A DNA stretch of 49,863 nucleotides, taken from the UHGV virus genome UHGV-1522688; one strand, 5' to 3'. The notes beneath the pieces are model-generated. The model did no database searches and was not told the DNA's origin. It was given only the letters and a program-made list of their open reading frames with translations. Made by a program: the position numbers and the translations under genes. Position 1 is the first letter of the stretch. Each line of letters begins with the position of its first letter. The stretch is from a virus. Of the stretch, positions 1-49,863 are shown in pieces.

Positions 1-151
1 ATTTAAATAATTCACTTTAAATTCAATCATATAATCACACAAATACATCCAGAATCCAAATTAAGGGCGCATTTAGGTACACATTAACCTACGCGCCCTC
101 TCTTTTAGTTACCACCTATACTTTCAGTCTGACATATGGCTGGAGGTTTTT

Positions 152-823
152 ATGTGTGGACGTTTTTCACAGTCAATGACGCGTGAAGACTATCTAGCCC
201 TTCTCGCTGAAGAAGTCGAACGAGACATTCCATATGGCCCTGAACCGATCGGACGTTTCAACGTTGCGCCCGGAACCAAAGTTCTGCTACTGAGCGAACG
301 TGATGAGAAACTCCATCTTGATCCAGTTATCTGGGGATACGCCCCCGGGTGGTGGGATAAACCACCACTAATTAATGCACGCTCTGAAACTGCGGCCACC
401 AGCAGAATGTTTAAACCACTCTGGCAGTATGGTCGTGCAATTTGCTTTGCTGATGGATGGTATGAATGGAAAAAGGAAGGTGACAAAAAGCAGCCCTACT
501 TCATTCATCGAGCCGATGGCCAGCCGATATTCATGGCGGCGATCGGCAGAACACCATTCGAACGTGGAGATGAAGCAGAAGGATTCCTGATAGTGACGGC
601 TGCTGCAGACAAAGGGCTGGTAGATATTCACGACAGGCGGCCGCTGGTTCTGTCACCAGAAGCCGCTCGCGAATGGATGAGGCAGGACATTGGAGGGAAA
701 GAAGCTACGGTAATTGCGGCTGACGGTTCCGTGCCGGCTGATAAATTTTCATGGCATGCTGTAATGCGTGCCGTCGGGAATGTTAAGAATCAAGGACCAG
801 AGTTAATAGAAACTATGCGTTGA
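152..823 (+). CDS. yedK: SOS response-associated peptidase YedK (SRAP family, abasic-site processing)
   Basis: 223 aa starting MCGRF (Cys2 nucleophile signature of SRAP/YedK); collinear with enterobacterial YedK as recalled. Confidence 0.9.
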   Translation: MCGRFSQSMTREDYLALLAEEVERDIPYGPEPIGRFNVAPGTKVLLLSERDEKLHLDPVIWGYAPGWWDKPPLINARSETAATSRMFKPLWQYGRAICFADGWYEWKKEGDKKQPYFIHRADGQPIFMAAIGRTPFERGDEAEGFLIVTAAADKGLVDIHDRRPLVLSPEAAREWMRQDIGGKEATVIAADGSVPADKFSWHAVMRAVGNVKNQGPELIETMR

Positions 824-1053
824 CGTACGAAGCGACAGAGAAAAACATCTGCTTTGAGCGAAAAGTGGCAGTTGAAGACAATCATGAACGATCTATGACT
901 CGATATTTACTTAATTCACTGTTATTCAAAGGGTTAAGTAAAAAAATATTATCTGTCACCTCAGTGCAATGCAATCTAAGGTTTCAAAGAACCCCCCTTT
1001 GAGTACACCGTAAGTTTTAAAATGTGAGGTAAGTTGATTTTACATATTTTCTA

Positions 1054-2124
1054 ATGCATTATCATACGTCCCTTAAAATAAATCATATTACTGAGAAAAA
1101 AATGTCCAACATTAATTTATTCGATGATGTAGTGCCTTTAGAAAAACAACATCCAATATATACAATGATGAAAGAAGAACGCTACAAACCGGAGAGAGAT
1201 GTAATTAATCAATGGGCAAAAGGATTTCAAGACCGAGACAATAAATTTGCTAAAGAATTTCAAACAAGTTTTGAACCTTGCCTATGGGAATTATATCTTT
1301 TTGCCTATCTGAAAGAATTAGGCTTAAGGAGCGACTTTTCATACGACGCTCCTGACTTCGTCGTCAATGATCCAGATTTTTGCATTGAGGCAACTATTGC
1401 ACTTCCAGCACAAGGAGACCTTGGGGCGCATGGTTTCAGTAAGGAAGATATGCCGAGAGATTTTAATAAATTTAATTCTGAAGCATCTATTCGACTTAGT
1501 AATAGCTTTATATCAAAGGTTAAAAAATTAAGATCGAGATATTCTCTACTTCCTCAATGTAAAGAAAAACCTTTTGTAATCGCCATAGCTTCATTCGACA
1601 GACCTTTTGCACACTTTGCAGCAGCTAGGCCCATACTTGCAACATTATATGGCCTATACCATGATGAAGAAGCAACCATTGAATCAGGGTCAAAGAGTAT
1701 AATTTCTTATAACGTCGATGCTGCAGTAAAAAAAGAAAATGTTAATATAGACATGGGGTTATTCTGCACACCTGAATATTCGGATGTAAGTGCTGTGATT
1801 TATAGTAGTTTAGCTACTTGGGGAAAAGTAAGAGCCCTTGCGGACAACCCTTCTGCTCTAACGATTTATACATCATTTACTCCAAAGGAAAACTCATTAT
1901 TTCCTGAAGTTCATCAAGCCTTAAAAAGTGATTATGTAGAACATCTAGCGGATGGGTTATATATTTTACACAACCCATTTGCCAAGCATCCATTGCCTAA
2001 AGAGACACTAAGTCATCCAAGAATAGCGCAAGGTTATATTGAGCCAGATGGATACGTTAATTTTATAGCGCCAGATGATTTTCTTTTATTGCGTTTTTTA
2101 CAATCGTTAAATTTGAAAGAGTAG
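1054..2124 (+). CDS. hypothetical protein, A+T-rich islet gene 1 (possible PD-(D/E)xK-like nuclease core)
   Basis: 356-aa ORF (alternative start at MSNINLFDD, about 1102); helix then 'DAPDFVVNDPDFCIEATIA' resembles a restriction-endonuclease-like strand motif; no family recognised. Confidence 0.5.
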   Translation: MHYHTSLKINHITEKKMSNINLFDDVVPLEKQHPIYTMMKEERYKPERDVINQWAKGFQDRDNKFAKEFQTSFEPCLWELYLFAYLKELGLRSDFSYDAPDFVVNDPDFCIEATIALPAQGDLGAHGFSKEDMPRDFNKFNSEASIRLSNSFISKVKKLRSRYSLLPQCKEKPFVIAIASFDRPFAHFAAARPILATLYGLYHDEEATIESGSKSIISYNVDAAVKKENVNIDMGLFCTPEYSDVSAVIYSSLATWGKVRALADNPSALTIYTSFTPKENSLFPEVHQALKSDYVEHLADGLYILHNPFAKHPLPKETLSHPRIAQGYIEPDGYVNFIAPDDFLLLRFLQSLNLKE

Positions 2125-2283
2125 TAATTATGGTCACATCTAATTACTTTACATAGATACCCACTAGAAAGGGGACTTTTCTTAAAACTCAGCCGTCAAA
2201 GATTTAGAGTGGTTATCTACTGGTATGCTTCCGAATCTGCCAGTGCGGCTGAGTGGATTTCTAGTACCCTCTAGAAGATTTAG

Positions 2284-3132
2284 TTGATTAAAACAGGTCA
2301 TGTATCATCTTCAGAGTCAACATATCGCCAACTGTCTATCATTCCATTGAGGAAAAGTATGTCATCAGAAAATTTTGTCACCTTCTGGCTCGCTAGAGCC
2401 GATCTTCCATACTTTCTTGAACCTCATGAATTTTACGTTTCGGAGGCCAAGCGTAGACTTCTATCGCAGTTTGGCGATTTAGAACAAGAAGCAGAAAGGA
2501 GGGAACAACAGTATTTGGAAGCTACCTCAAAATATTTCGATCCTGATAACGATGATCCAATGGCTGCCTACGAGCAAGCCTACCACGTGGGAATTAATTA
2601 TGTATGGTCGCTTCTGGAGATGCAAAATACCGTGTTGTTGGCATTAACGGCAGGAATGTACCACCAGTTTGATAAAAAACTAAGAGAACACACCATCAAA
2701 GAACTAAGTAACTGGTGCAAAAGAGAATTAATTACTCCCATGATCTGGAATATAACTTTCCATCAGCTTATTGATTTACTCGAATGGATTGGCCTCAAAA
2801 TCAATGGAACCGGATACGGAGAGAGGATCAAAGCCTGTAACTTGGTAGTAAACGTATACAAGCATGGGGACGGGCCTGCGCATCAAACACTATCATTCAA
2901 TCATCCTGAGTACTATCAACACCCTACCGATGTTCGAGGTACGCAGAACATACATGACCATGATGATTTACATGTATCAGAAGAGCAATTTGTAGAGTTT
3001 GCTGACGCAATAACTGAATTCTGGAAAGCAGTTCCAGAGAATTGCTATTACTCAGATCTCAAAGAAGAACCCAAATGGTTGAGTAAAGTCGTAACAAAAT
3101 TCGATAAAAAACAGAAGGGAAATAGGGACTAA
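2284..3132 (+). CDS. hypothetical protein, A+T-rich islet gene 2
   Basis: 282-aa ORF (alternative start MSSENF about 2359) directly downstream of gene 1 on same strand; no recognised family. Confidence 0.5.
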   Translation: MIKTGHVSSSESTYRQLSIIPLRKSMSSENFVTFWLARADLPYFLEPHEFYVSEAKRRLLSQFGDLEQEAERREQQYLEATSKYFDPDNDDPMAAYEQAYHVGINYVWSLLEMQNTVLLALTAGMYHQFDKKLREHTIKELSNWCKRELITPMIWNITFHQLIDLLEWIGLKINGTGYGERIKACNLVVNVYKHGDGPAHQTLSFNHPEYYQHPTDVRGTQNIHDHDDLHVSEEQFVEFADAITEFWKAVPENCYYSDLKEEPKWLSKVVTKFDKKQKGNRD

Positions 3133-3240
3133 TTACCCATCTCAAAACATCAAGTTTGCAGTGCCCTGCTCCCCGTTTATTAGTATGGAAGTTAACAATG
3201 TCTGCTTCTGACACATAACAGCCCTTAAGATGGTAACTCG

Positions 3241-3290
3241 CCGTCATGGGGTGTCGGGGGTCGGAGGTTCAAATCCTCTCGTGCCGACCA
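3241..3290 (+). other. partial tRNA-Pro (3' ~50 nt incl. T-arm, acceptor 3' strand and CCA); integration-site remnant
   Basis: 'ccgtcatggggtgtcgggggtcggaggttcaaatcctctcgtgccgacca' matches the 3' half of enterobacterial tRNA-Pro(CGG) as recalled; the 5' acceptor strand 'cggcacg' and D-arm are absent upstream. Confidence 0.7.
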
Positions 3291-3303
3291 AAAATCCTCG
3301 AAG

Positions 3304-3330
3304 AACCAGCCTGTTACGGCTGGTTTTTTT
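3304..3330 (+). terminator. rho-independent terminator following tRNA remnant
   Basis: 8-bp stem aaccagcc/ggctggtt with 6-nt loop followed by TTTTT. Confidence 0.55.
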
Positions 3331-3420
3331 ATGCCTGTTTTCTGAACGGGGAAGCAACGGGGAATAATTGGGGAAAAACCCCGACACAAAACATCGACTT
3401 TACCGTAAAGTTTCAGCTAT

Positions 3421-3810
3421 TCACATCACTGGGCAGTCATCAAACTCCGCGTTCCTGGCATCATTAATGATGTACGTGATAACACCAAATATTGCGTGTG
3501 AAGAATTATAGCCATCACCGTCTTCTGGCAGCACTTCTCTTCTCCCGTTCTCCAGATTTATCAGGTGGGGCTGAGGGTGAGTTCGGTATCGCTTGATCCT
3601 GAATTCCCCATCTATCGCGCATATCAGCAGCGAGCCATCACAGGCTGAAAGCGACGCGTCCACAACAAGTAGTGCCCCCTGGATTATCCCTTCCCTGAAA
3701 TGTGAACACGATGCCCGCATGAAATAAGTCGCTGCGGGCTGGCTGATTAGCTGTTGATCGAGGGAAATCCTTGTTTCAACGTAATCACTGGCAGGTGAAG
3801 GGAAGCCCAT
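3421..3810 (-). CDS. UmuD'-like protein, encoded without the N-terminal arm (begins at the position equivalent to UmuD Gly25)
   Basis: From internal ATG with GGAGG SD: MGFPSPASDYVETRISLDQQLISQPAATYF... aligns with E. coli UmuD residues 25 onward ([29 protein letters not shown]); C-terminal 'AIDGEFRIKRY...FGVITYII' matches UmuD fold; Lys of the Ser-Lys dyad retained, GDSM motif diverged to CSHF. Confidence 0.8.
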   Translation of the reverse strand: MGFPSPASDYVETRISLDQQLISQPAATYFMRASCSHFREGIIQGALLVVDASLSACDGSLLICAIDGEFRIKRYRTHPQPHLINLENGRREVLPEDGDGYNSSHAIFGVITYIINDARNAEFDDCPVM

Positions 3811-3812
3811 GG

Positions 3813-4055
3813 CTATAGTCCTCCGTTTGGATTGAAAAGCTGAAAGGTACGGTTCTCCCCTTCCTGCGTTGATACATCGCGGAATGATGTCACATACCAC
3901 TCGATCCATTCGTTAGCCTGCTTCATCGTCCAGTTCCAGTTAACCTTGCTCAGTTCCTGGACAAACCGCTGTGTGGTGACGGTCTTCCGGCCATTAGGTT
4001 CTTGCTGTATCGAAGCATGCCAGGCCATTTCAATATCGCTGCGTCGTGGCATCAA
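3813..4055 (-). CDS. hypothetical protein, upstream partner of UmuD'-like gene
   Basis: 80-aa ORF ending 2 nt before the UmuD'-like ATG; not UmuC-like. Confidence 0.45.
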   Translation of the reverse strand: MMPRRSDIEMAWHASIQQEPNGRKTVTTQRFVQELSKVNWNWTMKQANEWIEWYVTSFRDVSTQEGENRTFQLFNPNGGL

Positions 4056-4094
4056 TTAACCCCTCTTGAATACCGGATAAAAACACAGTATAAA

Positions 4095-4114
4095 TACTGT
4101 ATATCCATCCAGTA
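4095..4114. promoter_or_regulatory. putative LexA box (SOS operator) in divergent promoter region
   Basis: TACTGTATATCCATCCAGTA: CTGT-N8-CCAG, same variant half-site as the E. coli dinI box as recalled; sits 17 nt upstream of the dinI-like start. Confidence 0.55.
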
Positions 4115-4130
4115 AAGATGACTACAAGAA

Positions 4131-4373
4131 ATGTTCGTGGAACTCGTTTATGACAAAAGGAATTTTGATGGGCTGCCTGGTGCAAAAGATATCATTCTGG
4201 GCGAATTGACCAAGAGGGTTCACCGGATCTTCCCCGATGCTGATGTTCGGGTTAAACCGATGATGACACTGCCGGCGATCAACACTGACGCCAGCAAGCA
4301 TGAGAAGGAACAGATAAGCCGTACTGTTCAGGAAATGTTTGAAGAAGCTGATATGTGGCTGGTTTCAGATTAA
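4131..4373 (+). CDS. DinI-family protein (DNA damage-inducible protein I-like)
   Basis: 80 aa; C-terminal '...EQISRTVQEMFEEADMWLVSD' parallels DinI '...QRISEILQETWESADDWFVSE'. Confidence 0.7.
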   Translation: MFVELVYDKRNFDGLPGAKDIILGELTKRVHRIFPDADVRVKPMMTLPAINTDASKHEKEQISRTVQEMFEEADMWLVSD

Positions 4374-4501
4374 ACACCTTGAACCGTCATATTGCTTAAG
4401 TACAATCCGCCGTGACTGGCAATCATTCAATACTCGCACTATCGAACGTTCGCCAGTCGGCCGCAATCATGCTCTTGCATACGGCGTGGTTGCGGCAACC
4501 G

Positions 4502-6058
4502 TCAATTTTGCTGGCTACCTTTCAGCGTCTCAATCACATTCTTCAGGGAATTGAGTTCAGACATCTGTTCCTTCATCGCTCTGCCCATATAAACCATAGC
4601 GCATGCCATATCGGCCATAATGACATTATTATCAAGGGCAAGGGTATCGTCTTTGAGACCAACCTCAATCTGATGGTCAACATATTCGTTACCGGACTCA
4701 TCCACACCAACAACGTCCTCAAAAACAGGTCCACCAGGCACTATCTTTACGTACTGCGGATCAACTTTAGTCAGATCCTGGGCAATAAGGCCAAAACGCT
4801 GTGTATCCGACCCCTTATACTTAAACATGGTCGGTAACCACTGCATGACACGGTCGAAACTGTCTTTCCCGTCCCGATATTGGATATCTTCTTTTAGATC
4901 GCGGTCTGATGTCGCATTCTTGGCGAACACGTACGATCCCTGCCAGTTTGACCCGGATTCGTTCCATACGTCAGTAGTGATATCACCAGACTGAGGATTG
5001 AATCTGAACATCCTGTGATATCTGGCATCGCCCATAAAATGTAAGACGCCATGTGGCCAGCCATTGGCACCATTAGAAATGAGTCCCAGTGACAGACGAG
5101 TACTCCACCCACCCGATGCAGAAGAACCACCAGAAACGATTGGAGCCCAGCCACCATCATTTCCACCAACAATGGCGGACCAGTAAGGGGTGGTCCATGG
5201 ACCATCAACATCCCCCCAGCCACCCGATCCGCACTGTCCCCAGAAACCACGTGGTGATTGTATAACCCCACCATAACCAGAAAGAAAGTTGAAACGGTAT
5301 GTGTTCGCTCCTGCTCCAAAACTATTCGCGATTAGAGCAATGGCATCCAGATAATTACCCGCACCTCGTATCCCGCCAAACTGATAGAACGAATTCCCCA
5401 TCCACCCCTGCAGCTGGTTCATCATCCAGCCCAGTTCACCATCAACGTTATTCGACGTCAGTAAAATATCCTTCTTGACGCCAGCAGTGCTTTTGACGCC
5501 TGTACCCGACCCACCCGCCACCGAATTGACGCCACGGGTGCCAAGAACACTACCGAACGTAACATCCTGAGAGTTTCCCAAAGTGAGATTATCGCGGGCC
5601 GCATTTTTATCAGGCAGATCGGCCAGGGCCTGGCTTTTCAACAAAGCATTATTGATCTGATCAATAATGCTTTTCCATGATGGTCCTGTAAACTCCGTAT
5701 TGTCAGGAAGCCTGACAGTAATATTGCCGTTCGCAGAGAATAAAAGTTGCCAGTTCTGTTTGTCGTAATTCAGCCCCCGCAGCGCCTCCGTGTTCTGCAC
5801 CACCATTGCGGCAGTAACCATATTCAGCGCCACACGAGGAACAGCTGACCAGGCCGCGCCAGATTGGGTTGGCCCGGTGTAATTGCTGACCAGCGTCAAC
5901 GCTGTACCACTTTCCACGGACTTAACCGGAAGCGTATAGGGAACACCACCGACCGTAACAACAATAAAATCTCCGGCCGCCACCTCAGTGGTAAACGCGG
6001 TCCCGCTGCCAGCGACCGCAGCCGAGTTATTCATCAGGGTTAATGTTCCTGCTGACAT
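4502..6058 (-). CDS. side tail fiber protein with C-terminal intramolecular chaperone (peptidase S74-like) domain
   Basis: 518 aa; Gly/Ser-rich repeats; C-terminal 'SDRDLKEDIQY...RFGLIAQDL...' typical of auto-cleaving chaperone domain of phage fibers. Confidence 0.75.
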   Translation of the reverse strand: MSAGTLTLMNNSAAVAGSGTAFTTEVAAGDFIVVTVGGVPYTLPVKSVESGTALTLVSNYTGPTQSGAAWSAVPRVALNMVTAAMVVQNTEALRGLNYDKQNWQLLFSANGNITVRLPDNTEFTGPSWKSIIDQINNALLKSQALADLPDKNAARDNLTLGNSQDVTFGSVLGTRGVNSVAGGSGTGVKSTAGVKKDILLTSNNVDGELGWMMNQLQGWMGNSFYQFGGIRGAGNYLDAIALIANSFGAGANTYRFNFLSGYGGVIQSPRGFWGQCGSGGWGDVDGPWTTPYWSAIVGGNDGGWAPIVSGGSSASGGWSTRLSLGLISNGANGWPHGVLHFMGDARYHRMFRFNPQSGDITTDVWNESGSNWQGSYVFAKNATSDRDLKEDIQYRDGKDSFDRVMQWLPTMFKYKGSDTQRFGLIAQDLTKVDPQYVKIVPGGPVFEDVVGVDESGNEYVDHQIEVGLKDDTLALDNNVIMADMACAMVYMGRAMKEQMSELNSLKNVIETLKGSQQN

Positions 6059-6464: not shown

Positions 6465-7139
6465 TTAATCATATGCAGCTGTGTTTATCGCCGTTATCAC
6501 AATTCCACTATTTGTCGTACCGATTGAAGAGCCGCTTGCTGTTGTTGATGTAAGTCCTTTTATTCTCGTTCCCGCACCTTCATTGAAGCAACCTGTACCC
6601 ACATCCACAGACTGAATGATTGGCTGTCCACCAGGTGCCGAACCAGCATGAAGGAGAACAGATCCCAGCCCCATCGGATTTATGGCCCATTTGCCTGCCA
6701 TGTATGTATCAATGTTAAGCCCACCACTTACAGCACCTGGTGAACCAATAGTTGTAAGGTCGCTTAATACCCGGGACTCATTCGTAAGTACCAGTGTCCC
6801 TTCGGCATCCCATATAGCCACCCCCCAGGCAGGAAGCGTAAGCGGATATATGGCAAAAAAATAGGCCTCAAGGACAAAAGCCGATCCCCTGTAATTAGAC
6901 GCATTAACACTGAACGTATTGCCACTTTTTGAAGCTGATATCTTCGCCGGGGCGCTGGTTCGTGCAAATGCAATCCCTCCCTTCTGACCGTCGATAGTAA
7001 CAGACGCCGAAACACTGTTAAAATTCCCCCCAAAAGTTGAGTTTACAGTGACTTTCCGGTAAAGCGTCATTGGTGTGGAATCAGGCGTGATAAAAGGGTT
7101 CCCGTTAGGTAATGAAATCAATGCGCCATATTTAGCCAT
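6465..7139 (-). CDS. hypothetical phage protein (tail-associated by position)
   Basis: 224-aa ORF between J and tail fiber, contiguous with upstream ORF. Confidence 0.5.
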   Translation of the reverse strand: MAKYGALISLPNGNPFITPDSTPMTLYRKVTVNSTFGGNFNSVSASVTIDGQKGGIAFARTSAPAKISASKSGNTFSVNASNYRGSAFVLEAYFFAIYPLTLPAWGVAIWDAEGTLVLTNESRVLSDLTTIGSPGAVSGGLNIDTYMAGKWAINPMGLGSVLLHAGSAPGGQPIIQSVDVGTGCFNEGAGTRIKGLTSTTASGSSIGTTNSGIVITAINTAAYD

Positions 7140-13369: not shown

Positions 13370-14983
13370 ATGAATATTGTGCATTATGCAGCCATTGGAG
13401 CTGTAGCTTTCGTAGTTGTTCTAACAATTTTGGTGATAAACATCATTAAATTAAAGTCAGCCAAGGCTGATGCAGCAGAAAAGGCGGCAAAACTTGAGCG
13501 TTACGCGTCAATCACCAATGCTGAAACAGAAGCTGAACGAATCGTGAATGCAGCTAAGCAAACCGCAGAAGAGTTAATTATTGATTCGCAGAATAACCTT
13601 GACGAGGCAAAAGCTGAAGCAGCCAACACTATTGCAGCCAGTGAAAAAGATGCAAGATCTATAACACAGCGTGCGGAGGATATTCTATCAGATGCGCGTT
13701 TAGCAGCTAAGCGAATGAACGCAGAGGCGCTGACCGCTGTAGAAACACAAAGAGTCAAGCGTGCAGAAATTGAAAAACAGATTGATGAATTGCGTAAATC
13801 CTATCGTGAGAAAAAAATCACTTACGATGAGCTGACGGAAGCCCTGTCAATTTATAAAGATGATATGGAATTTGCTGACATGGGGTTCTATGCACCACAC
13901 TTCGATTTTGATACCTCGGCTAGTTTTCAGGATGCGATCAAGGCATGTCGCGAACGGCAAAAAAATCTGCTACGTGACAAAACTGAATTTGGCGCAATAC
14001 ATTGCCCTACTGAATGGACGGTTGGCGGCTCTAAAAGTGAAGGTCGGAAAATGACCACTCGCGGCATTCAGATGACAGCACGTGCATTCAATGGTGAGTG
14101 TGATGCAGCTATTGCAAACTGCACATTTAAAAACGTTTATCAAATGGAGCAAAGAATTTATAAAGCCTTTGATGCCTTGAATAAGATGAATGAGGTTAAC
14201 CAGATTTACATCAATCGTGCTTTTTTAGATTTGAAGCTGGATGAACTTCGACTTACACATGAATATCGTTTGAAAAAACAAGAAGAACGAGAAGAACAAC
14301 GTGAAATCCGCGCTCAGATGGCTGAGGAGAAGCGAGCTCAAGCCGAAATTGATCGTGCACTTCGAGAGGCTGAAGATGAAGAACGCCGCGCCCAAAAAGC
14401 GTTGGATAAAGCCCGAAAAGAAATGGAATCGAAGCTAGCCCAAATGACAGCTGAGCAAGTTGAGAAACACCAAGCGAAGGTATCCGAATTAGAACATGCC
14501 TTAGAAGAGGCATTGTTGAAAGGCCAAAAAGCTCTTTCTATGGCTCAACAAACTAAACGCGGCCACGTGTACGTTATCTCTAATATTGGTTCGTTTGGTG
14601 ATGATGTTTTTAAAATAGGAATGACACGTCGACTTGACCCTCAAGATCGAGTGGATGAACTGGGTAGTGCATCAGTCCCATTCCTGTTCGATGTTCATGC
14701 AATGATTTTCAGTGAAGATGCACCAACAATGGAAAACATGCTCCACCAGCGTTTCAATGAGCAACGCACTAACCTAGTTAATAAGCGTAAAGAGTTTTTC
14801 AATGTAAAATTAAGCGATATCAAAGATGCTGTGTTTGAGATCGCAGGTAAAGATGTAGATTTTATCGAAACAGCAACTGCTCAGCATTATTATGAAACAA
14901 AGGCAATTCGTAAGCAGAAAGCGGATATCATTTCAGTTGTTCCTCAAGAGGAAAAACTACCTAAATTTGCGGACGCAATATAA
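13370..14983 (+). CDS. membrane-anchored coiled-coil protein with DUF4041-like region and C-terminal T5orf172/MUG113 (GIY-YIG-like) domain; candidate defence/exclusion factor
   Basis: 537 aa; N-terminal hydrophobic helix (AIGAVAFVVVLTILVINII); long Ala/Glu/Lys/Arg-rich helical stretches; C-terminal 'GHVYVISNIGSFGDDVFKIGMTRRLDPQDRVDEL...VPF...LHQRFNEQRTNLVNKRKEFF' matches T5orf172 signature as recalled; opposite strand to the tail operon; A+T-rich. Confidence 0.7.
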   Translation: MNIVHYAAIGAVAFVVVLTILVINIIKLKSAKADAAEKAAKLERYASITNAETEAERIVNAAKQTAEELIIDSQNNLDEAKAEAANTIAASEKDARSITQRAEDILSDARLAAKRMNAEALTAVETQRVKRAEIEKQIDELRKSYREKKITYDELTEALSIYKDDMEFADMGFYAPHFDFDTSASFQDAIKACRERQKNLLRDKTEFGAIHCPTEWTVGGSKSEGRKMTTRGIQMTARAFNGECDAAIANCTFKNVYQMEQRIYKAFDALNKMNEVNQIYINRAFLDLKLDELRLTHEYRLKKQEEREEQREIRAQMAEEKRAQAEIDRALREAEDEERRAQKALDKARKEMESKLAQMTAEQVEKHQAKVSELEHALEEALLKGQKALSMAQQTKRGHVYVISNIGSFGDDVFKIGMTRRLDPQDRVDELGSASVPFLFDVHAMIFSEDAPTMENMLHQRFNEQRTNLVNKRKEFFNVKLSDIKDAVFEIAGKDVDFIETATAQHYYETKAIRKQKADIISVVPQEEKLPKFADAI

Positions 14984-15626: not shown

Positions 15627-18600
15627 CTATTTTGGCTGGAACTGCCTACCAAGGAGGCCATCACTTCGAGTTGCCCTCATAAGGATCTCCGTCACCTTAG
15701 TTTCTATTTCCTTCCCTAACGCCCGCGCTGCTGCGCCTCCGTCTCCAGATGTGTTAGATGTTGCATTGCCCTTATTATCGACATAAATATCAATGTTGAC
15801 CTGCGGCTGGGCTCCACCTCCACCCTGCGCCCTTACACCAAGTCTTCCAGCAGAATCCCGTGTCAGCGGCATGATGGCCTCTTCACCTGCCTCAGCAAAA
15901 ACTCCACCTTTGGCGAATTTAGATGCCCCTTGGAAGGTGAAATACTGAGGAGAGTCGTAGACGCCATTCACGTACTTACTGAGGCCCGGAGACTCATAGA
16001 CTCCGCCTTTTGCGTTCGGGGTGAATGATGGAACAGCGAATGATTGCCCGCCCCCAGCCGAAGCAACAGAGCCACCACTGATCCACCCCATTGCGGCCTG
16101 CACTGCATAGGCAACCATGAGGCGGTTCGTCACATCAAGGATCATCTTGAGCATGGATTTGCCGAATTCTTTAACTGATGCTTTGCCAGTGGTCATCAGC
16201 TCAGTCAGCATGTCGCCCAAGCCAGTCAGCGTGGAGCTGGCGACGTTTTTCACAGCATCGTATGTGTTAGTGGCAGCGTCCAGATACTCATTCCATCCGC
16301 TTAAAGCACCAGCCTTCCAATCACCGCGAAGCTTATCCTCTTCGGCGTAGTAGTTACGAAGGGCTGCCAGCTCTTTCTCATAGCCAGCATCTTCTAGCTT
16401 TCCGCCACCATTCAGCCATCCCTGACGAAGCTGCGCTTCTTCGGTCATTCGCTGAGCCATACGACTGCTTAAACCTGACCCGCTACGTAACGCCTCAGAC
16501 TTTTCAGCCATCTGCGTTACATACTTATTAGCCTGCTGTGCCAGGCCGTTAATCTTCTGCTGGGCCTCTACTTCTTTGTTCTTCTGATCCACAACCTTCG
16601 CGGCATTCAGAATGGCTTCTCGGCTAGACAGGAGTGACTTCTCCTGCGCGGTCAGTGCGCGGGTTTTGGCAGCCTCGTCCAGTTCCACAAAGCGTGACTG
16701 TTGTTTGCTGAATTCGGTATTTTTGGCGTGAATATCGCCGGTCTGACGCAGGGTTTCGAGGGTTTCCGTTAAGGTCCTTGCCTGCGCCCGGTAGTTCTCC
16801 AGGGTGCGATCGCCAGCATCGAGTGTTGCTTTCGCTTCTTTTGTCTTTTTGGCTGAGTCTTCTGCAAGCTTCGAGACTGCGTTTCTCGACTCGCGGCTCG
16901 AGCCCCCTTCCCCTTTAACGCTGGCACCTCGCGCTTCGGCTTCATAGCTTGCCTGTGCATTAGGCGCAGTGACCCGCTTCCAGAGTTCATCGTAGCGTTT
17001 TTTGTTCGCTGCGATCTCTTTGTCAGCTTCCGCCCCGGCCTTTTTCATAGCCTCAACATCCATGCCGAGGAAGTCGGTTATTGCTCCGCCGCCCGGGATT
17101 TTCTCAGCCCATCCTGCAATGGTCCCAGTAAACTTGGAATCCAGAGAGGTAATGTTGAGGAACAGGTCCTTTATCGAAGCTTCAACCAGGTTGAAAATAT
17201 CGATCACCTGATTTCCCCAGGCGCGGACAGTAATCCCGATATCATCAAAGGAGTCAGATGCTGTTTTCTTCAACCACTGCCAGGACTGCCCAATATTGTC
17301 GGTGGCCCTGTTGGTCTCTTCTGCGCGCTTTGCCATAACGCCAGCAAACAGGTTGATGGCTTCGTTTACCGCCGCCTGCTCCCCCTTCTGCTTACGCAAC
17401 TGGATGATGTGCTTCATCATGGCTTCATCAACAAAGCCATACTGCTCATTCAGGCTGGCCAGCCCTTTCACCGGGTCGCTGACAATCTTGCCGAAGTCGG
17501 ACATCGCCGTTTTGGTGTCACTGCCAGCCTTGCCCATCAGAGTGATGGACGTGGCGATCTGCTTCATCTGGCTGGCGGTATATTTACCAGTGTCATTCAG
17601 CGTAACCAGCGTATCTACGGTGGAACTGATGGATGTATTCGTCTTGCCGGCCACCTCTTCAGCAGCCTCATTGAGCTTCTGCATTGAGGAAAAACCAGCG
17701 CCACCCATCATGATGACCGATCGCGCCACTTGGTCGAATTGCTCGGATGAACTATATGCCGCAGTAGCCAGCAGACCAACCGTACCGACCAGACCTGCCA
17801 GCGCAATAGTGGTTGGGTTAATCATCCCAGCCATGCTGCGGATGTATTCGCCGACGCCAGTGAGCGCCCCCTGAACCCCGCCAAACTGGTCTTTAATCTG
17901 CCCGCCCTGTTGCAGCAGGATCAGGAAAGGAGACTGCCCACCAGCCAGCTGCGTGGCGATATCGGTGAACTGTGCTGGTAGTGTGCGCATTGCTGCGCTG
18001 TACTGGCCGACAGATATACCGGCACGACGCGCCGCAGCCTCCTGGCGAGATAGTGCCTCTGGCAGCACGTCAGCCACGCCAGACAGGCGCTCACGCGTCT
18101 GGTTCAGGATTGTATTGAAGTGCTCGAACTGCGCGCCGTTAATACGCCCCGCTTCGAAGTGTGCCACCAACTGCGCATGCTGCTCATCCAGCGAGTTAAA
18201 CGCGCGGATAGTCGGGTCGATAGAGCCCAGCAGGTTTTTCAGTGCTGCTGATTGTTTCTCGGCAGCCTGGGTCGCGGCCAGTTCTGCCTGGGCGCGCGCC
18301 GCTGCTTCTCCGGTATCCGTCAGTTTTAACCGGGTCTCGTCCAGGATTTTGTTGTAGTGCTGAAAATCATCAGTATCCAGGAAACCTTTGGTCTGGAAGT
18401 TGCGCAGTGCGGCCTGTTGTTCATCCAGCCGGTTCAGCGCCTTGTTAACTGGATCGATATTCTCCAGCAGCCCCTTCAGCGCGATCTGCTGTTCCTTGAT
18501 ACCTTCAGTGCCCTGTTTCGCAGACTCAGCACCAGCACGGAATACGCTATTAAGGTCATCAGCTTTGCCTACGGCACCCGCCGCGGCTTCACCGAGTTTA

Positions 18601-37631: not shown

Positions 37632-37865
37632 CTAATAAAACCAGTCGTCAGCGCTTTCCCAGGTATCCTGGAGGATTGATTCAATTTTCTTTTTATCGTC
37701 CTTGTCACCGCCAAAAACACTTAACCCATCCGACCCGGCACGGCGGATTGTGAGCCTGCAATTGTCATAGTGATCATTCAGGCGCTTAAGCAATTCTTTC
37801 TCCAGTGCAGGAACCGCGCCTTTAGGAAGTTCTTTCATACGATCAATGGTTAATTCAACTTTCAT
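37632..37865 (-). CDS. DinI-family protein (second copy)
   Basis: Start at ATG with GGAGG SD: MKVELTIDR...; C-terminal 'KKKIESILQDTWESADDWFY' nearly identical to DinI 'QRISEILQETWESADDWFVSE'. Confidence 0.8.
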   Translation of the reverse strand: MKVELTIDRMKELPKGAVPALEKELLKRLNDHYDNCRLTIRRAGSDGLSVFGGDKDDKKKIESILQDTWESADDWFY

Positions 37866-37883
37866 AATGGCCTCCAATGCATA

Positions 37884-48188: not shown

Positions 48189-48431
48189 ATGCGACTAATT
48201 AACCGTGCAAATCAGCAATCCCCGTTAGCGCGTCAGGCATGCGACATAGCACTGGCCACTCATGCAGAACGTTACGGCGACTATGGCCGCAGCAAGATGA
48301 AGGAAACGTACACGGTGAGAGTTGAAGGTGTGAAGGTCTGGGTGGAAGTGGTGAACCGTAAGGCTAGCTACGTGGCCACAGCAATGACAGGTATGCGTCG
48401 TTTGCGCGCGCTGCCGGGTCAGGTTTCTTGA
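48189..48431 (+). CDS. hypothetical small protein
   Basis: 80-aa ORF between recT-like and xis. Confidence 0.4.
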   Translation: MRLINRANQQSPLARQACDIALATHAERYGDYGRSKMKETYTVRVEGVKVWVEVVNRKASYVATAMTGMRRLRALPGQVS

Positions 48432-48476: not shown

Positions 48477-48677
48477 ATGGATGATATTTTGCTGACGTCA
48501 GACCTGACCAGTCGATACAAAATCTCACGTAAAACCCTTTGGTCATGGCAAAGCACAGACACGATGCCGCGGGGTTTTGCGAAGCCGTTCCCCGCCCCGG
48601 ACTTCCCCGGTAACCCTAACCGCTGGAAGTCGGAGTCAGTCAAAGAGTGGGAAGGTGTGAAACAGCCAATTAACTGA
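48477..48677 (+). CDS. xis: excisionase (AlpA/Xis-family HTH)
   Basis: 66 aa; '[12 protein letters not shown]' HTH typical of AlpA-type; adjacent to integrase. Confidence 0.7.
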
Positions 48678-49863
48678 ACGGCTCACCGATGATGTTTTCA
48701 AGATGGCTCTGCCAAACGTGGAGCCAGTGTTTTTGATCATCGATGTAGTCATGCAGGTTATAGTGCGCCATCACGCCAACCATTTGGTGACCAAGTAACT
48801 TTTCAATCACATGCGGCGGACAGCCAAGTTCTGAAAGATTTGTTGCGATTGTTCTTCTCATATCATGGAGAGACCAGGGCTCCATGCCGGATTCTGACCA
48901 AATATACCTGGCGTAGTTCGAAGCAACTGGCGGATGAACCGGGACGTCTTTAATTTCCCCATCCAATAAGCGCTGTGAAGTGACTAAATGCTTTGTGTTG
49001 ATCTTCTCAAGATGATTTTTTACCAGTCCCACCGCAGCATCAGAAAGAGCCCTTCTCATGTGCACTCGCGTTTTGTAACTTCCAGCAGGAACTATCCATT
49101 CATTTTCATCCAGCTTGAACCATGACCTTTCGCTTAACCGAATCTCTGCCGTCCTACAGCCGGTCAACATAATAAATTTCACAAGAAACACGGACTCTAT
49201 GGACATGCGGTTTTGCAGCCACCGATAAATAGCCACCAGCTCACGATCATCCAAGCGCCGCGTTCTCTTTTTCGGTTTTTGGCCAACGTCAGTGGGTAGC
49301 AATCCCTCGAGCGGATTGGTCGATATTACGCCTCGGTTAATACAGAACCTGAATGAGCGTTTGCACAGCGAAAGCATATAATGAGCCATCACCCTGCTTT
49401 CAATCTGATCAAAAACATCTATCCAGTGCCTTTTTGTCGAATTGTCGACTTTGACGTTTCGCATCGGTTCGGCGATATGCTTGGCAAATACCAACTGATA
49501 ATAACCTGTCTTTGTCAGTTGATTAGCGATGCAGTGTTTCTCGATCCAATAATTGAATGCTTCCGATACGGCCATGGAACCTTCGCGGGTCAATTTCTCC
49601 AGCTTTACTTGCTCTCGGGGATCGAGTCCTTCAGTAAGCCAGATTCTGAATTGCTGACGCCTTTCCCTTGCCTGAGCAATACTCATTGCTGGATAATCGC
49701 CGACATTGAGTTTTACAGCTTTGCCTGCCCATCTGTACCGGTAGAAGAAAGAGACCTTTCCGGCCAGACTGATTCTTGCGTTGAGTCCGTGAGAATCTGA
49801 AATAATTTCGATATCATCGCGTTTCTTGCCAAGGGCCTTCCTGAGCTTTGTGTCAGTGATCAT
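48670..49863 (-). CDS. int: tyrosine integrase (start at or beyond window edge)
   Basis: 397 aa; catalytic-domain motifs '[11 protein letters not shown]', 'LHDMRRT', 'MAHYNLH'; N-terminus 'TDTKLRKA' typical of P4-like integrases. Confidence 0.9.

Follow-up and report, generated by a model that had tools for sequence, protein, structure and literature searches.

A tRNA-Pro 3′ fragment inside a phi80-type prophage as a probable orphan attachment-site relic of proL-targeting lambdoid phages

Phage attachment sites at the 3′ ends of tRNA genes, the mosaicism of lambdoid genomes and the existence of hotspots for accessory and defence genes are already established. Hotspots of the latter kind, which gather moron and defence genes in temperate phages, are exemplified by the lambda b region and the defence hotspots of P2/P4. 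Accessory and defence hotspots of temperate phages are also the subject of a separate report (bioRxiv 10.1101/2021.01.21.427644). The lambdoid phage phi80 uses an attB within the 3′ end of yciI (PMC13449921; PMC5727415). Other lambdoid phages integrate at the tRNA-Pro(GGG) gene proL; they are represented by the free phages Eeyore (PP925821) and Flotzy (PP925827), for both of which complete genomes exist, and by a prophage of E. coli FORC_042. The locus compared with these systems lies in the UHGV virus genome UHGV-1522688, a stretch of 49,863 nucleotides that was analysed at full length and is termed the window in the following; its features are compiled in Table 1.

With phi80 the window shares Int (84%), Xis (83%), both attP arms and the chromosomal position (PMC13449921), but phi80 is devoid of the tRNA-Pro piece and carries pinL and pseudogenes where the window has the SRAP gene, the PD-T7-5 gene and the tRNA-Pro piece. 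The flanks of the window were taken from contigs encoding exactly its first (L009) and its last (L018) protein. On the left side, L009 contains trpBA, ompW, yciCBA, tonB and yciI, the stop codon of the latter being placed directly before position 1; on the right side, L018, whose position 15700 corresponds to window 49863, continues from int into yciY, cls, yciU and opp. The same gap is filled in E. coli by a prophage with a homologous integrase, which is bordered by yciI on one side and by kch on the other. The att core at the 3′ end of yciI, ATTTAAGAAAGTGTTCT, was defined in E. coli from a lysogen in comparison with the empty K-12 site and carried over to the Citrobacter junctions by alignment, the cores of the two species differing at a few positions. 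In the window prophage the duplicated core is present at both junctions as TACAAAAAGGTTTTTT and TACAAAAAAGTATTTT. The left crossover core, TACAAAAAGGTTTTTT, overlaps the stop codon of yciI just left of position 1, and the second copy is located ca. 190 bp past the window end, before yciY-cls, the right-flank arm and this core together occupying 1–205 bp past 49863 (flank from L018). Both attP arms align with the attP of phi80 and with an E. coli lysogen. The int-side arm does so up to the annotated phi80 core (ACAATTTAAGAAAGTGT versus ACAATACAAAAAAGTAT), the int-distal arm contains the arm-type motif GGTACACA at 74–85, and joining of the two Citrobacter junctions rebuilds a phi80-like attP.

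The only integrase gene of the window starts facing this attP, Int and Xis are homologous to their phi80 counterparts, and the layout of the module is as in phi80. The integrase is 96% identical to Citrobacter sequences, and the best E. coli DNA matches to the window are 78–89% identical and patchy; the DNA is not that of E. coli but stems from Citrobacter or a relative. Based on these alignments, we assign the whole window to one prophage with a phi80-type recombination module integrated at the 3′ end of yciI, and its integrase is predicted to be the active one of this prophage. An exact-word search missed the true core, which is imperfect and has its left copy just beyond the window edge; it emerged only when the E. 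coli lysogen was set against the unoccupied site of K-12, and through comparison with phi80. The only word of at least 12 bases shared between the int-upstream flank and positions 1–4500, TAGGTACACATT, was rejected as an att repeat, being an arm-type motif and not the core.

Table 1. Features of the window around the tRNA-Pro fragment and in the recombination module
Feature	Position	Strand	Basis or remark
phi80-type att arm, int-distal junction, phage side	1..115	+	aligns with NZ_CP104681 arm and phi80 attP
SRAP (SOS-response-associated peptidase) gene, accessory	152..823	+	Pfam PF02586, E 2e-50; phrog_1599
PD-T7-5-family predicted anti-phage defence gene, first islet ORF	1054..2124	+	PADLOC PDLC04110, E 3.9e-102; phrog_8571
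Second islet ORF	2284..3132	+	phrog_19541, E 1e-71, function-unknown PHROG; 257–282 aa
Decayed tRNA-Pro 5′ half	3211..3240	+	aligns to proL nt 2–27, same register as relatives
tRNA-Pro(GGG) 3′ block	3241..3290	+	50/50 identical to E. coli K-12 proL nt 28–77; att core region of proL-integrating lambdoid phages
Intrinsic terminator hairpin and T-run, A-tract upstream	3300..3331	+	folding; part of phage P′ arm
Three GGGGAA repeats, 11-nt spacing	3348..3375	+	putative arm-type integrase sites, P′ arm
UmuD-like S24 peptidase gene	3421..3909	-	Pfam PF00717; phrog_811; same position in Eeyore, Flotzy
DinI-family gene	4131..4373	+	Pfam PF06183, E 4e-21; same order in Eeyore, Flotzy, L097
Tail-fibre gene with S74 chaperone domain, start of structural region	4502..6058	-	Pfam PF13884; L009 gene table
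DUF4060 gene	48189..48431	+	Pfam; phrog_1852; same position in phi80
Excisionase gene	48477..48677	+	66 aa, 83% identical to phi80 Xis; gene called in L018
phi80-type integrase gene	48670..49863	-	84.3% identity over 99% of length to phi80 Int

The tRNA-Pro piece (CCGTCATGGGGTGTCGGGGGTCGGAGGTTCAAATCCTCTCGTGCCGACCA) sits 3.2 kb inside this prophage. The proL segment to which it corresponds spans the anticodon stem-loop, the variable loop, the T arm, the 3′ acceptor strand and CCA, and in the window together with its 10-kb flanks this core occurs as a single copy. ARAGORN found no whole tRNA gene in the window and Rfam, applied at the gathering score, no tRNA; in permissive mode the Rfam tRNA model reached 15 bits in the region of the block against a cut-off of 29. 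The complete cloverleaf of a functional tRNA-Pro gene is absent, the sequence being intact for nt 28–77 only and matching at 12 of 27 positions in the 5′ half (Fisher p 5e-9 for the two parts). Further downstream, the hairpin at 3300–3329 with its T-run has a folding energy of −17.5 kcal/mol (z = −4.4), and none of 200 shuffled sequences was as stable. A consensus terminator scan missed this hairpin, probably because the upstream A-tract pairs with the T-run and thereby extends the stem, and folding was therefore relied on instead; given the A-tract, the terminator is potentially bidirectional. The claim of the first-pass annotation that merely the 3′ ca. 50 nt of a tRNA-Pro are present, accompanied by a terminator, is thus borne out.

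Past the CCA end, the proL flank of K-12 departs from the window soon after its terminator, whereas the terminator of the window and the next ca. 60 nt match phage sequences. The terminator and the DNA on its 3′ side consequently represent the P′ arm of a phage and not chromosomal DNA. In Eeyore and Flotzy the homologous segment is found directly 3′ of the integrase gene and is followed by a UmuD-like gene (−), a small ORF, a DinI gene (+) and a tail-fibre gene (−), which is the order at window 3421–6058. The terminator has homologous counterparts in Eeyore, Flotzy, Gifsy-2, FORC_042 and the IMG/VR contig L097, all of which also carry the GGGGAA array. The triple GGGGAA array with its 11-nt spacing is unique in the window and did not arise in any of 100 shuffles; it is kept in active attP (L022, L023) and active attL sites (L083, L088, L097) as well as in many orphans, and was seen downstream of the terminator in 36 fetched loci comprising active and orphan sites. 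The repeats are probably the arm-type binding sites of the proL-type integrase.

Lysogens illustrate how such a site is arranged after integration. In E. coli FORC_042, yejM is followed by a whole tRNA-Pro, the P′ arm, DinI and the tail fibres, the integrase being 43 kb away, and in the IMG/VR contigs L097 and L083 ARAGORN detects a tRNA-Pro(GGG) directly before the P′ arm. The relationship is close, as window 3231–4036 and the proL lysogen L097 share 97% identity. In proL lysogens the int-distal end, where the tail-fibre genes are, bears the whole tRNA, the 3′ duplicate being located beside int, and the tRNA-Pro(GGG) 3′ identity block of active sites comprises 46–49 nt, compared with 50/50 in the window. 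This architecture indicates that phages of the proL type contribute both the tRNA 3′ end and the terminator.

The window thus has the tRNA block, the terminator, the three GGGGAA repeats and the order of UmuD-like, DinI and tail-fibre genes in common with the att sites of Eeyore, Flotzy and FORC_042, but differs from them in several respects. A cognate integrase gene, which would end ca. 155 nt upstream and be accompanied by a P arm, is not found; an Eeyore-type P arm (ctgtttgcatatacag-type) is absent upstream of the window block; and the Int of the window is unrelated to that of Eeyore. Defence cargo and a decayed tRNA 5′ half are present instead, and the site is not positioned at the prophage end. 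Two further arrangements were observed among active or active-looking sites. FORC_042 carries a further core in front of a P4-like element, the lambdoid prophage and this element being arranged in tandem at proL (L030 3462–9302, core 4949) with a hybrid junction composed of the lambdoid P arm, the core and a P4-like P′ arm with its own terminator. In seven viral contigs (L038, L044, L046, L077, L079, L091, L107), 1.2–1.7 kb separate an Eeyore-family integrase from the tRNA-Pro core, which implies that cargo also gathers on the int side of otherwise active-looking sites.

The block is directly preceded on its 5′ side by 30–40 nt of a flank family that is common to orphan relics. Aligned with the 5′ half of the tRNA, this family follows the register GGCAC.TA..GC.GCC, a 7-nt insertion and TGGTA.C.C, and the window reads GaCACaTA--aCAGCC, the 7-nt insertion and TGGTAaCtCg. 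A first local alignment of the decayed 5′ half in the window to the tRNA was not significant (p = 0.32); with the register constrained, the window reached p = 0.04 and five relatives (L072, L074, L095, L085, L110) p ≤ 0.001, and the tRNA-like character of the 5′ half is accordingly proposed at the level of the family only. It hints at a descent of the relic from a whole-tRNA junction of the attL type. Some active P arms are, however, also faintly tRNA-like (p about 0.01–0.03), so that attL and attP origins are not cleanly separated and attL descent is hinted at rather than proven. The perfect 3′ block beside a decayed 5′ half could also mean that selection maintains the block, which would then not be a dead relic.

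The structural data bear likewise on the idea that the fragment is expressed as RNA, either as a tRNA-like structure at the 3′ end of the cargo mRNA or as a tRNA-half decoy or processing signal. Since it follows cargo ORFs on the same strand and precedes a terminator, it would be transcribed as an mRNA 3′ end, and the anticodon and T arms are complete. Against this, the window and all orphan relatives are free of tRNA calls by ARAGORN and Rfam, the 92-nt pseudo-tRNA folds no better than shuffled sequences (z = −1.6), the D-arm is broken by the 7-nt insertion, and an att core accounts in full for the identical block. The sole lead from Rfam, a weak match to STnc50 antisense (22.5 bits, E 0.18), is not reproduced in the homologous segment of Gifsy-2 and was discarded as a terminator-driven chance match. 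A role as RNA is therefore extremely improbable.

Between the phi80-type arm and the fragment, the window carries an SRAP gene and an islet of two ORFs. SRAP genes occur in many other prophages, either beside S24/DinI genes or beside the relic. The islet is A+T-rich, with a GC content of 0.36–0.40 at 1001–3000, 5′ of the tRNA piece, and of 0.36 for the PD-T7-5-family gene itself. The match of the latter to PDLC04110 is full-length, residues 20–351 being aligned with profile positions 1–340 of 346. In L009 the two islet genes are called with starts at window 1102 and 2359, respectively. No match to Pfam or PADLOC was obtained for the second ORF, which could encode a partner of the PD-T7-5 gene product or a second defence gene. 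With a PD-T7-5 family member and PHROG families for both ORFs, the islet is classified as phage accessory cargo.

Comparison of relatives defines the islet more precisely. In the icd-integrated prophage of E. coli fEC.1, the SRAP and S24 genes abut. The IMG/VR contig L027 contains SRAP, 3 kb of other DNA, the relic and S24 in the vicinity of a tRNA-Ser att fragment (4660–4745), which is a 3′ tRNA-Ser fragment 97% identical to an annotated E. coli tRNA-Ser and suggests that a third integration specificity has been joined to the SRAP-cargo-relic-S24 block. In L049, L072, L074 and L095, SRAP is found 0.6–2.5 kb upstream of the relic with other cargo in between. The cargo between SRAP and the relic thus differs across relatives, which characterizes the interval as a variable cargo slot. 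The boundary between variable and conserved DNA is not at the core but ca. 44 nt 5′ of it, and downstream of the att site the UmuD-like gene opens the conserved block of proL-type phages. As in the hotspots of temperate phages, a variable A+T-rich defence gene (PD-T7-5) occupies a fixed, terminator-bounded slot beside an att site; the slot of the window differs from them in that one of its boundaries is formed by the fossil att site of a different family of integrases. As a side aspect, the UmuD-like S24 and DinI genes (3421–4373) and the SRAP gene (152–823) form an SOS-related trio around the relic whose members travel together in many prophages.

These findings decide on the origin of the fragment assumed in the first-pass annotation, which had taken it for an integration junction of the present chromosome, left by an older tRNA-Pro-associated islet beside which the prophage was inserted. 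Formulated as an explanation, the fragment would be the chromosomal distal att copy of an older tRNA-Pro island and the islet would be host DNA. The underlying description is accurate, as the 5′ side is A+T-rich and the sole integrase lies at the right edge on the minus strand. The islet is moreover found on that side of the fragment where a tRNA-targeting island is expected, and FORC_042 provides a real example of tandem arrays with hybrid junctions at proL. However, the phi80-type arm at 1–115, with yciI ending just before it, places the islet and the fragment inside the prophage, and neither K-12 nor any of the fetched loci has a tRNA in the yciI-kch/cls interval. On its 3′ side the fragment is bordered by the P′ arm of a phage instead of the proL flank, the SRAP-cargo-relic-S24 block also occurs in prophages at other sites, and both islet ORFs belong to phage protein families. 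An intact tRNA and a direct repeat would be expected near a chromosomal tRNA-linked island, but neither an intact tRNA nor a second tRNA-Pro core is found within 10 kb on either side, and we regard such an island as very improbable.

The remaining expectations of the first-pass annotation fared unequally. It had correctly anticipated that the neighbouring integrase uses a different att site, which turned out to be the one of phi80 within the yciI 3′ end. The other att core is indeed present in the right flank past 49863, and flanking tRNA-Pro cores, which would have refuted its reading, were not found within 10 kb of the prophage. Its rule that the duplicated 3′ fragment lies at the int-distal end does not apply, the orientation being reversed in the proL-type family. 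Of the tandem or successive insertions it had proposed, successive events at tRNA-Pro are plausible, but the islet is not a chromosomal remnant next to the prophage.

The fragment is homologous to a working att site that belongs to another family of integrases, is enclosed in a phi80-type prophage without the integrase belonging to it and borders variable cargo. We interpret it, with a probability of roughly 85%, as an orphan attachment-site relic, consisting of the tRNA core and a complete P′ arm, of a proL-targeting lambdoid lineage. The free proL-type phage has the order int, P arm, 46–49 nt tRNA 3′ block, terminator, GGGGAA array, UmuD-like, DinI and tail-fibre genes, and upon integration its tRNA 3′ block and terminator replace the 3′ end of the host proL. 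A scenario for the history of the relic can be outlined as follows. A proL-type ancestor of the window prophage may have lost int and the P arm and have gained a different int/att cassette and cargo, presumably in this order. The relic itself might stem from a whole-tRNA junction of the attL type, e.g. by imprecise excision or by recombination between prophages. The window prophage has kept the right half of a proL-type site but uses a phi80-type recombination module of its own (Int, Xis, DUF4060, attP arms) at yciI, and for this reason the relic is situated 3.2 kb inside, devoid of its cognate integrase and of an Eeyore-type P arm. Its present role is probably confined to terminating transcription between the cargo and umuD-like genes, which converge on it, and to marking a boundary of recombination homology with proL-type phages. 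The tRNA-Pro piece is an ordinary by-product of lambdoid module swapping and not a chromosomal integration junction.

Orphan relics of the same kind are present in prophages at ssrA (E. coli ATCC 11775 and other strains), at icd (fEC.1) and at tRNA-Ser (L027), as well as in Gifsy-2. In ATCC 11775, the one context inspected in the survey of complete E. coli genomes, ssrA comes first, then three ORFs of cargo, the relic itself, DinI, a DUF262 gene and the tail-fibre genes. Gifsy-2 (L024, NC_010393 44207–44334) contains a degenerate core and P′ arm ca. 1.5 kb from the int-distal end, upstream of the effector gene sseI; this relic is unannotated in the record, and the phage record gives Gifsy-2 its own separate ends. 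In all of these, as in the window, a core and P′ arm lie in the accessory region that separates the int-distal att from the DinI/tail-fibre genes, the cargo 5′ of them being variable, and most of them also share the decayed-tRNA 5′ flank, but their active att sites and cargo differ, the copy number varies from 1 to 3 and the Gifsy-2 copy is more degenerate.

The frequency of the pattern was estimated in two ways. All 5,426 of 5,426 complete E. coli genomes match the core via proL, with about 330 extra places, and relic and 5′ flank occur together in 113 complete E. coli genomes. In addition, viral (IMG/VR) contigs were scanned for the core, loci being collected by an exact 31-nt match to part of it, and 80 loci among the matches listed were classified. 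Two of these 80 carry a whole tRNA (attL type), nine an Eeyore-family integrase within 400 nt upstream and another nine an integrase 0.4–3 kb upstream, the window-type 5′ flank being found in none of these three groups. At least 25 are orphans, defined by at least 1.5 kb of available upstream sequence and the lack of an integrase within 3 kb as judged with a panel of only four integrases, and 12 of them have the window-type flank; for the remaining 35, with under 1.5 kb available upstream, the class is undecidable (six with this flank). Among the listed loci, the window-type flank is accordingly associated with 12/25 orphans versus 0/20 integrase- or whole-tRNA-linked sites. With at least 25 orphans among 80 listed, non-exhaustive viral contigs, the pattern is common.

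Two to three direct copies of the relic exist at 3/84 loci, where they bracket single genes or SRAP plus cargo (fEC.1 (L007) at 6846 and 8018; L043 at 7520 and 8692; L049 at 1554, 2622 and 6077). These arrays invite the alternative that the relic is a working recombination site at which a proL-type integrase acting in trans, from a co-resident or co-infecting phage, inserts or swaps accessory-gene cassettes or recombines the prophage with proL. Such an activity is compatible with the intact core and whole P′ arm including the GGGGAA array, with the variation of the cargo directly 5′ of the relic between two conserved sides, with the bracketing copies, and with the ca. 90% conservation of the first 22 nt of the core in orphans, where the 5′ flank is conserved to 67% and the P′ arm to 79%. 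The last estimate is biased, as a perfect match to 31 nt of the core had served to pick the loci, and core conservation is therefore not used as evidence of selection. The window moreover lacks the cognate integrase and the Eeyore-type P arm, multi-copy arrays are rare, the variable/conserved boundary lies ca. 44 nt 5′ of the core, and degenerate copies are found in Gifsy-2 and as copies 1 and 2 of L049. Taken together, a site still at work is quite unlikely.

A broader version of this idea, which we consider rather unlikely, would treat the orphan core plus P′ arm units as maintained cassette boundaries, between which genes might be shuffled by a proL-type integrase in trans or by Red/RecET acting on ca. 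150 bp of shared sequence. The two- to three-copy arrays of fEC.1, L043 and L049 are hints in this direction, as are a conserved flank with variable cargo next to it and a perfect core adjoining a decayed 5′ half. If true, defence and SOS-related genes could be inserted, duplicated and swapped across phages of different integration specificity in a loosely integron-like manner.

For the reading as an orphan attachment-site relic, a limited literature search revealed no description of this tRNA-Pro relic, and in the literature searched no fossil att site of another integrase family serving as a hotspot boundary was found. To phage genomicists the relic will be unsurprising; its chief use is to urge caution in boundary calling and to document a swap of integration modules. 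The boundaries of prophages and islands are widely called with the help of partial tRNA genes, but such a fragment may sit kilobases inside a prophage integrated elsewhere, and a boundary call at this position would cut off the SRAP and PD-T7-5 genes. The relic would further record how a lambdoid phage switches its integration specificity, a new int/att cassette being added and the old core and P′ arm being left behind, and the comparisons indicate that the slot beside it gathers variable defence cargo.

Two minor observations concern other parts of the window. An apparent second DinI-family gene near 37632–37877 is deduced from the gene table of L018. At 13370–14983 (+), a 537-aa ORF coincides with an A+T-rich patch (GC 0.41–0.43 versus ca. 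0.55 around it), runs antisense to the flanking tail genes and looks like another moron inserted into the structural region.
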